A program made the position numbers and the translations under genes. This document shows, one piece after another, positions 1 to 691 of a DNA stretch of 691 bases. The first letter of the stretch is position 1. Every line of letters starts with the position of its first letter. Below the pieces are notes generated by a model. The model did not search any database. It had not been told where the DNA came from and saw only the letters and a program-made list of their open reading frames with translations. The stretch is from the NCBI RefSeq assembly GCF_003334815.1, contig NZ_QOWO01000121.1. The stretch is one strand, 5' to 3'. Origin of the DNA: Escherichia coli. GTDB lineage: Bacteria; Pseudomonadota; Gammaproteobacteria; Enterobacterales; Enterobacteriaceae.

Positions 1-38
1 GCCAGCGGCAGGCCGCGATGGTCGCAGTGGTACAGGTG
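1..38 (-). other. Probable N-terminal edge of the 'RHS repeat-associated core domain' ([13 protein letters not shown]…), continuing beyond the left window edge
   Basis: Translation of minus-strand codons 218-230 gives [13 protein letters not shown], a YD-like motif (Y-H-C-D-H-R-G-L). In my recollection of E. coli Rhs proteins this immediately precedes …EYDEWGNLL…GLYYNRHRYYDP…DPIGL, the end of the conserved core. Domain assignment is by recollection of the family consensus, not an HMM run. Confidence 0.55.
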
Positions 39-691
39 GATTTTTCGCGCCGGCGTGTACACCGGGTCCATCTGGTTTTGCATCTGCTCCACCGTCAGGC
101 CGCACGATGCCAGCCAGCGGCGGCTTTCCTCACTCACCCGGTCAGCCAGGATTTCACTTTCCAGCCGGTCGAGCATCTGCACCAGCACCGGCGGGAACAC
201 CACACTGCCACCGTCTTCGCCGCCGGACTGCTGAAGGGTATCCGCCAGGCTGCGGCGCTGCGTTTTCGCCAGCTCACCGGTGGCGGTTTCAACCCTGATG
301 AGTGGCGTGAAGCTCCCCGGCTGATAAATCGTCTGGATGCGGGTTCTGTCGTTCTGTATCGTGGTCAGGCGGTCGCCGTCCCAGCCGTACCAGGTCACTT
401 GCGGTTTCCGTGACAGCGACATCCAGCCCGTCAGGTCCCGTTCACGCCGCCATACCCGTTTTGCCACCCTGCGGCCCAGCGGGTCGTAAAGATAGCGACT
501 TTCGACCAGCGGCTCTGCATATTGTGTCCGCGTGTAGTGCACCAGCCGGTGCTGACTGTCGTAATGGTACCGGTGGGTGCGCTCATCATCCGTGCGGATA
601 ACCCCTTCCGGGATGAGGTCGGTTTTCTCTGTCAGCCTGCCGTGACGGTCATACCGGTAAAGATAGTGCGCGTCACGGGCGATACGGTTAT
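1..691 (-). CDS. rhs: Rhs-family YD-repeat protein, conserved core region (internal fragment, truncated at both window edges; codons in frame from + coordinate 689 down to 3, last 2 nt form a partial Ala codon)
   Basis: Seen in sequence: the minus-strand frame is open over the full window (229 codons, no stop), whereas the other frames are interrupted. The translation contains repeated YD-type motifs ([57 protein letters not shown]) matching the Rhs/YD-repeat consensus (Y-x-Y-D-x-x-G-R-L). Third codon positions are strongly G/C-biased in this frame. Recognition from memory, not a database search: the peptide is near-identical to the E. coli K-12 Rhs core (RhsA/B/C type). The paralog (rhsA/B/C/D or an orthologue in another enterobacterium) cannot be assigned from 691 nt of conserved core, so the symbol is the generic family name. 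Confidence 0.9.
354..395 (-). other. YD-repeat motif-encoding segment ([14 protein letters not shown]) within the Rhs CDS
   Basis: Direct translation of minus-strand codons 99-112; Y-G-W-D-x-x-(D)-R-L-T variant of the YD motif. Confidence 0.65.
453..497 (-). other. YD-repeat motif-encoding segment ([15 protein letters not shown]) within the Rhs CDS
   Basis: Direct translation of minus-strand codons 65-79; good match to the Y-x-Y-D-x-x-G-R consensus. Confidence 0.8.
531..569 (-). other. YD-repeat motif-encoding segment ([13 protein letters not shown]) within the Rhs CDS
   Basis: Direct translation of minus-strand codons 41-53; Y-x-Y-D…R-L pattern, degenerate (no Gly). Confidence 0.65.
627..665 (-). 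other. YD-repeat motif-encoding segment ([13 protein letters not shown]) within the Rhs CDS
   Basis: Direct translation of minus-strand codons 9-21; matches the YD-repeat consensus Y-x-Y-D-x-x-G-R-L-(T/I). Confidence 0.75.

Follow-up and report, generated by a model that had tools for sequence, protein, structure and literature searches.

The window, by which we mean the whole 691-nt stretch of DNA analyzed here, is an internal stretch of the conserved E. coli Rhs core, encoded on the minus strand. Its high G+C content is real and resides mainly at synonymous third codon positions. We consider it probable (roughly 70%) that the core originated in a GC-rich background and has drifted only partially toward the host composition, while the AT-rich toxin tips would be of separate origin. 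For these E. coli genes, the elevated G+C content has been known since the 1990s, and in this respect the window adds nothing new.

An Rhs core forms a YD-repeat shell that encloses a C-terminal toxin. Only one of the six reading frames of the window, minus-strand frame 2, is free of stop codons (Table 1). Its translation matched the NCBIfam model NF041261 (RHS_core) with E = 1.5e-145 and 486.8 bits at model positions 941-1169 of 1261. The whole-protein cutoff of this model is 2000 bits, and the score of the window lies below it because only 18% of the model is covered. Megablast returned 100% hits that carry the annotation rhsC or "RHS repeat-associated core domain protein". The Rhs core identity given in the original prediction was confirmed. 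YD repeats of the YDxxGR[LI] type are present in the translation (e.g., YLYDPLGRR), and TIGR01643 (YD_repeat_2x) was matched with E = 3.5e-5 and 24.1 bits, compared to a cutoff of 15.8. The Pfam matches (RHS_repeat and RHS) were weak on so short a piece. The end of the window that carries the RHS segment lies approximately 80 residues upstream of the core/tip boundary, the DPxGL motifs of which are outside the window (in RhsC, they are at residues 1220 and 1242). An Rfam scan of the window revealed nothing credible; its best hits (E = 0.16 and 0.7) scored well short of the gathering thresholds.

Table 1. Positions of the features discussed in the text, given on the 691-nt window
Feature	Position	Strand	Basis or remark
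Internal part of Rhs core ORF, rhsC/ybfO type	1..691	-	Frame open past both ends; 229 complete codons, 689 down to 3
YD (RHS) repeat unit, residues 10-24	618..662	-	Weak Pfam PF05593 (RHS_repeat) match; motif seen in translation
YD repeat units, residues 33-55	525..593	-	NCBIfam TIGR01643 (YD_repeat_2x); Pfam PF05593 at residues 38-55
Start of conserved "RHS protein" segment	3..41	-	Pfam PF03527 positions 1-13 = residues 217-229
Probable shadow ORF, 131 codons, codon-aligned antisense frame	18..413	+	ORF scan; not to be taken for a gene

More distant relatives were also recognized by sequence comparison. Among solved structures, the nearest by sequence are Rhs shells associated with type VI secretion (T6SS), namely Tse5 from Pseudomonas aeruginosa (8cp6) and the Salmonella bongori Rhs core (8qjb, 8qjc, and 8qjd); the C-terminal third of these YD-repeat shells was matched by residues 1-143 of the window, with E-values from 7e-12 to 2e-7. 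The distant homologues at loci L015 and L016 adjoin vgrG or T6SS genes. For rhsC, the annotation of the loci examined shows neither vgrG nor a T6SS gene next to it.

The G+C content of the window is 62.2% (0.623 in the frame-based comparison of pieces described below). A hand count of 79 G or C in the first 120 nt had been given beforehand, and it proved exact (65.8%). In 120-nt sliding windows, the G+C content ranged from 0.575 to 0.675. In the minus-strand frame, GC1, GC2, and GC3 were 0.659, 0.450, and 0.760, respectively, with G or C at 174 of the 229 third positions. The strong third-position bias had been predicted relative to a chromosome of about 51% GC, together with the proposal to compare exact GC, GC3, and codon usage with the host. 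As a reference, we used 188 complete MG1655 genes (181,857 nt) from three unrelated 50-kb stretches and four rhs locus flanks, i.e., a part of the genome. In bulk, the three 50-kb stretches had 51.9% GC; per gene, the host GC was 0.529 ± 0.032 and the GC3 was 0.574 ± 0.056 (n = 188). The window deviated from the gene mean by z = +2.9 (GC) and z = +3.3 (GC3), and not one of 259 in-frame host pieces of 687 nt reached its GC or its GC3. Furthermore, its synonymous codon usage differed from that of the host (chi-square, p = 1.5e-9; for the whole rhsC core, p = 2e-41). The predicted bias is thus borne out in all three respects. The Karlin-type bias B of the window is 0.535 (host mean 0.344), and 9 of the 259 pieces had an equal or higher value.

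Could the GC richness be a mere by-product of the encoded protein? Gly, Arg, Pro, Ala, and Asp, which are abundant in the YD-repeat shell, have GC-rich codons. In line with this, GC1 and GC2 of the window slightly exceed the respective host means (0.603 and 0.411), and amino acid composition alone adds +0.024 to +0.038 GC. However, 48 and 55 of the 259 pieces attain the GC1 and the GC2 of the window, respectively, so that both are inside the host range, while GC3 is beyond every piece. When the same 229 residues were encoded with host synonymous usage, GC was 0.558 and GC3 was 0.578 instead of 0.760. The GC excess of the window (+0.088) consists of +0.024 from amino acid composition and +0.065 from synonymous choice, so about 73% of it is synonymous. 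Moreover, a homologous core in a low-GC host (L023) has a GC of only 0.499. The decomposition by host usage largely refutes protein composition as the sole cause, and we regard the by-product explanation as improbable. Even less probable is that the codon bias was selected for translational efficiency in E. coli, in the manner of genes with high expression. Several of the enriched codons (CTG, CCG, CAG, ATC, and GAC) are indeed also common in E. coli, but so are codons enriched that are rare there: CGG makes up 26% of the Arg codons in the core and 10% in the host, AGG 7% versus 1%, and ATA 13% versus 5%, and GGG is enriched as well. Conversely, the preferred CGT is depleted (16% versus 38%), and so is GGT. 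Therefore, the bias is not E. coli translational optimization. In addition, the exact-match copy is usually a promoterless orphan annotated as a pseudogene.

A further candidate for a constraint on composition is the long plus-strand ORF, if it were a real overlapping gene. Its frame is open in rhsA, rhsB, rhsC, ybfO, and the E. albertii copy, and it is stop-free in rhsD. This openness in all paralogues is, however, compositional, because stops in the antisense frame arise only from the sense codons TTA, CTA, and TCA, which are scarce. The ORF has GC1, GC2, and GC3 of 0.760, 0.450, and 0.659, a mirror image of the sense frame. Furthermore, the window and rhsD differ at 159 positions, of which 32, 27, and 100 are at the first, second, and third sense codon positions, respectively; the antisense translation is 52% identical to that of rhsD, compared to 80% for the sense translation. 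An overlapping gene is thus hardly credible, and from its sequence properties the ORF appears to be a shadow ORF. The original prediction had attributed the long opposite-strand ORF to the base composition, and this holds in part: the window has one stop-making codon (TCA), whereas 4.8 are expected with host usage, but in 17% of simulations under ordinary host synonymous usage an equally open run of at least 136 codons also arose.

A GC-rich core followed by a GC-poor tip had been predicted for a sliding-window plot across the whole rhs locus, and the 300-nt plot of the MG1655 rhsC locus bore this out. The core was at 0.57-0.68, and the tip together with ybfB was at 0.32-0.47. A second GC peak corresponds to the orphan core fragment (0.61-0.64), after which its tip, ybfC, and the H-repeat region fall to 0.29-0.45. 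At this locus, a small AT-rich ORF, a putative immunity gene, follows each tip (ybfB and ybfC). The four MG1655 cores (rhsA, rhsB, rhsC, and rhsD) have GC of 0.613-0.633 and GC3 of 0.715-0.754, the toxin tips 0.367-0.416 and 0.18-0.31, and the small downstream genes ybfB, ybfC, yibA, yhhH, and ybbC a GC of 0.31-0.37. The tips at L015, L016, and L020-L024, among them one in a host with 45% GC, are likewise AT-rich (GC3 of 0.25-0.33) relative to both core and host; among the hosts examined, the only exception is L018 (region around 14200), with a tip GC3 of 0.67 in a host with a GC3 of 0.75.

The same architecture, a GC-rich core and an AT-rich tip, is that of the K-12 rhsC element (rhsC plus ybfO, b0700-b0704). 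Jackson et al. 2009 (PMC2935791) summarize the G+C-rich core and A+T-rich core extension of the Hill laboratory, cite Wang et al., and mark off dissociated tips by means of the GC peak. At SMA1610, a clade II rhs locus of Serratia marcescens Db11, known here from that paper only, the core has 67.7% G+C and the tip 46.4%, and each of the downstream dissociated tips follows a partial core, which is visible as a peak in GC (PMC2935791). This locus differs from ours in Rhs clade and in host.

In megablast against complete E. coli genomes, the window was found in 3,885 of 5,426, at a median of 5 places per genome. Of the five exact matches inspected, four (L001, L026, L027, and L028) fall within the orphan core fragment, which lies downstream of rhsC and ybfB. 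This fragment, which is ybfO in K-12, is annotated as [quoted passage not shown] and is 100% identical to the window in strains PG20180053, RM10410, CE0011b, and 1303. Strain EBJ001 (L002) has the sequence of the window at 100% identity twice, in the full rhsC and in the orphan (L002 10130-10820 and 12001-12691), and therefore the window cannot be assigned to one copy. In PG20180053 (L001; 12001-12691 and 13872-14562), the orphan is identical to the window, while rhsC differs at 4 nt. These identity patterns suggest gene conversion between the main and orphan copies. Judged by the matches, the source of the window is the rhsC locus, either the promoterless orphan ybfO, which was the more frequent case in the exact matches inspected, or rhsC itself.

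Among the MG1655 genes, identity to the window is 99.4% for ybfO, 99.3% for rhsC, 98.6% for rhsA, 98.4% for rhsB, and 77.0% for rhsD. Neither copy at the MG1655 rhsC locus is identical to the window; the 4-nt differences from ybfO appear to be synonymous, as the translations read alike. In the nomenclature of Jackson et al. 2009 (PMC2935791), the genes rhsA, rhsB, and rhsC fall into the RhsA-B-C-F subfamily; rhsD is of the RhsD-E subfamily. The RhsD core is homologous to the window over the full length without gaps (80% amino acid identity) but differs in nucleotide sequence and in its chromosomal locus (ybbP-rhsD-ybbC). The window lies wholly within a 1,045-nt block common to rhsC and ybfO (97.2% identity; nt 2695-3738 of the rhsC gene), which ends at the DPxGL boundary. 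In Salmonella, recombination of main and orphan rhs genes was shown experimentally, with the orphan toxin tip moving to the main gene via such a block (PMC3967940).

Several peculiarities of these loci were noticed. The boundary motifs of the orphan read DPIGL...DSMGL, with DSMGL in second place instead of the DPxGL of rhsA to rhsD; DSMGL is found at L003 20181-20195 (MG1655 ybfO) and also at L001, L002, L026, L027, and L028. In CE0011b, the full-length rhsC (L027 12145-16317) is annotated as frameshifted, and the orphan downstream is intact. Directly downstream of the orphan tip and ybfC are transposase genes and remnants of the ISAs1 family (H-repeat; ybfQ, ybfL, and ybfD), located at L003 21446-23854 and L001 8071-10476 inside the AT-rich part of the element. 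Finally, an Escherichia-like contig (L029 1-1808) with a gcl 96.7% identical to that of MG1655 carries an rhsD-type gene at the selU-allS locus, in which an internal deletion joins rhsD nt 1346 to 3213, with the loss of approximately 1.9 kb of the core.

The original prediction adopted the classical reading of the GC-rich core as foreign DNA. Although diverged in sequence, rhsD is even more GC-rich (GC of 0.633, GC3 of 0.754) than the rhsC-type cores, and therefore the GC richness predates the split of the subfamilies. In the segment of the window, the E. albertii copy (96% amino acid identity) has a GC of 0.610, and two Lelliottia copies (59% and 53% amino acid identity) have 0.606 and 0.611. 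As a measure independent of the protein, we used the synonymous GC3 excess, i.e., the GC3 of a core minus that expected for the same protein under the codon usage of the flanking genes. Homologues came from a search of representatives at 50% identity with contig retrieval, 5 of 12 retrievals having usable flanks. The excess was +0.137 for E. coli rhsC and +0.175 for rhsD; at the six non-E. coli loci, for which the flank sets are short (3.8-17 kb) and include some T6SS or mobile genes, it was -0.008 (L015), -0.004 (L016), -0.011 (L022), +0.088 (L023), +0.102 (L011, Lelliottia), and +0.107 (L018). The E. coli cores are thus the extreme. Of the six other loci, three are near 0, three are near +0.10, and none is below -0.011; in this small sample, cores outside E. 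coli seem largely to track their hosts. Core GC3 spans 0.485 to 0.840 across the loci, with a correlation to flank GC3 of r = 0.77 (n = 8). In the hosts of L018 and L022, with 61-63% GC, ordinary flank genes reach a GC3 of 0.75-0.76, comparable to that of the window. Jackson et al. 2009 (PMC2935791) also state that rhs genes of the same clade differ in composition between genomes (data not shown there).

The direction of substitutions was also determined. With E. albertii as the polarizing outgroup, third-position changes within the rhsA/B/C clade were 44 from GC to AT and 21 from AT to GC (p = 0.006), which implies an equilibrium GC3 of 0.545, near the host value of 0.57-0.58. This flux is suggestive of slow amelioration toward the host composition. 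New mutations are AT-biased in general, which could alone give an excess of GC-to-AT changes. As a host control, kdpA and kdpB were compared in three E. coli strains; they contained one polymorphic site, too few to calibrate the 44:21 ratio, and in further strains fetched (the RM10410, CE0011b, and 1303 loci), the Kdp proteins were identical. Polarization with rhsD as the outgroup gave 109:41 and was discarded, as 77% identity is near third-position saturation and a GC-rich outgroup alone gives about 3:1.

Searches for homologues in further backgrounds returned few sequences from outside Escherichia. A scan of genome contigs with the 229-amino-acid protein found five loci only, too small a set for comparing species: E. 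albertii, two Lelliottia, and two that are apparently mis-binned E. coli. A tblastn search of a plasmid collection yielded pieces from E. coli and Klebsiella alone, of which several were in records of chromosome size, and a word-indexed homologue search returned almost only Escherichia and Shigella fragments. The two contigs, L012 1-297 (JARKOR010000224.1) and L013 2-190 (SFGN01000288.1), carry Rhs core ends 97-100% identical in amino acid sequence to E. coli, followed by AT-rich tips; they belong to metagenome-assembled genomes named Candidatus Nanosynbacter and Lachnospiraceae and are most likely mis-binned E. coli DNA. Four E. coli "plasmids" of PLSDB with rhs cores, NZ_OL790696.1 (4.80 Mb), CP061270.1 (1.20 Mb), CP099174.1 (1.31 Mb), and CP061233.1 (1.01 Mb), look like chromosomes or pieces of chromosomes. 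Two protein records are also peculiar: P0093 (390 amino acids; "VgrG, partial") has VgrG Pfam domains and matches the Rhs window at 78% identity with its residues 2-198, and P0071 (355 amino acids), labeled Acinetobacter baumannii, shares 80% identity with the window. Chimeric gene calls, contamination, or transfer may account for both records.

The main competitor to a foreign origin is that the high GC3 is actively maintained by GC-biased gene conversion among the multicopy and often recombining Rhs cores, in whatever host they reside. The copy number per genome and the near or complete identity of main and orphan copies over the window in EBJ001 (100%) and PG20180053 (4 nt apart) fit this explanation, and so do the three of six other hosts with an excess of about +0.10 and the lack of a real deficit in any of them. 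Furthermore, recombining bacterial genes have a higher GC content (Lassalle et al. 2015, PMC4450053). Against it are the three loci without any excess and the direction of the substitutions, since a flux toward AT with an equilibrium GC3 of 0.545 is the opposite of a force that holds GC3 at 0.72. In addition, the E. coli excess (+0.14 to +0.18) is large compared to what has been described for this effect in bacteria. We therefore regard such maintenance as unlikely, though by far the strongest of the alternatives weighed here and with a partial contribution of recombination, or of another general force raising GC in Rhs cores, being conceivable, and find it slightly more doubtful still that the GC3 excess of the core is a standing product of this process and not a fossil of foreign origin.

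A foreign origin of the core is supported by the comparisons across hosts and by the substitution counts, which favor it, and it matches the literature (Jackson et al. 2009, PMC2935791, and Wang et al. as cited there). The classical reading is thus supported, at a level short of proof. We infer a GC-rich donor and ongoing amelioration. According to this preferred history, the RhsA-D core lineage would have evolved in a GC-richer background, the ordinary genes of which had about 60-63% GC and a GC3 of about 0.72-0.76. The core would have entered the Escherichia lineage before the separation of E. coli and E. albertii and would since have drifted only partly to the host composition. A separate origin would apply to the toxin tips and immunity genes, which are AT-rich and would have been joined to the core at the DPxGL boundary via recombination within the conserved core end.

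For annotation, the results mean that the window codes on the minus strand and that no gene should be entered for the long ORF on the plus strand. Since the window has about five copies per genome and the main and orphan copies can be identical, reads and annotations from it are not uniquely placeable. The GC contrast between core and tip is an established hallmark of Rhs elements, in use to delimit cores, tips, and orphan fragments. The present analysis touches on the question of whether history or maintenance by recombination underlies the GC3 excess that persists in the cores. If it were a standing product of GC-biased gene conversion, Rhs loci would be a natural within-genome reporter of the strength of this process in bacteria.
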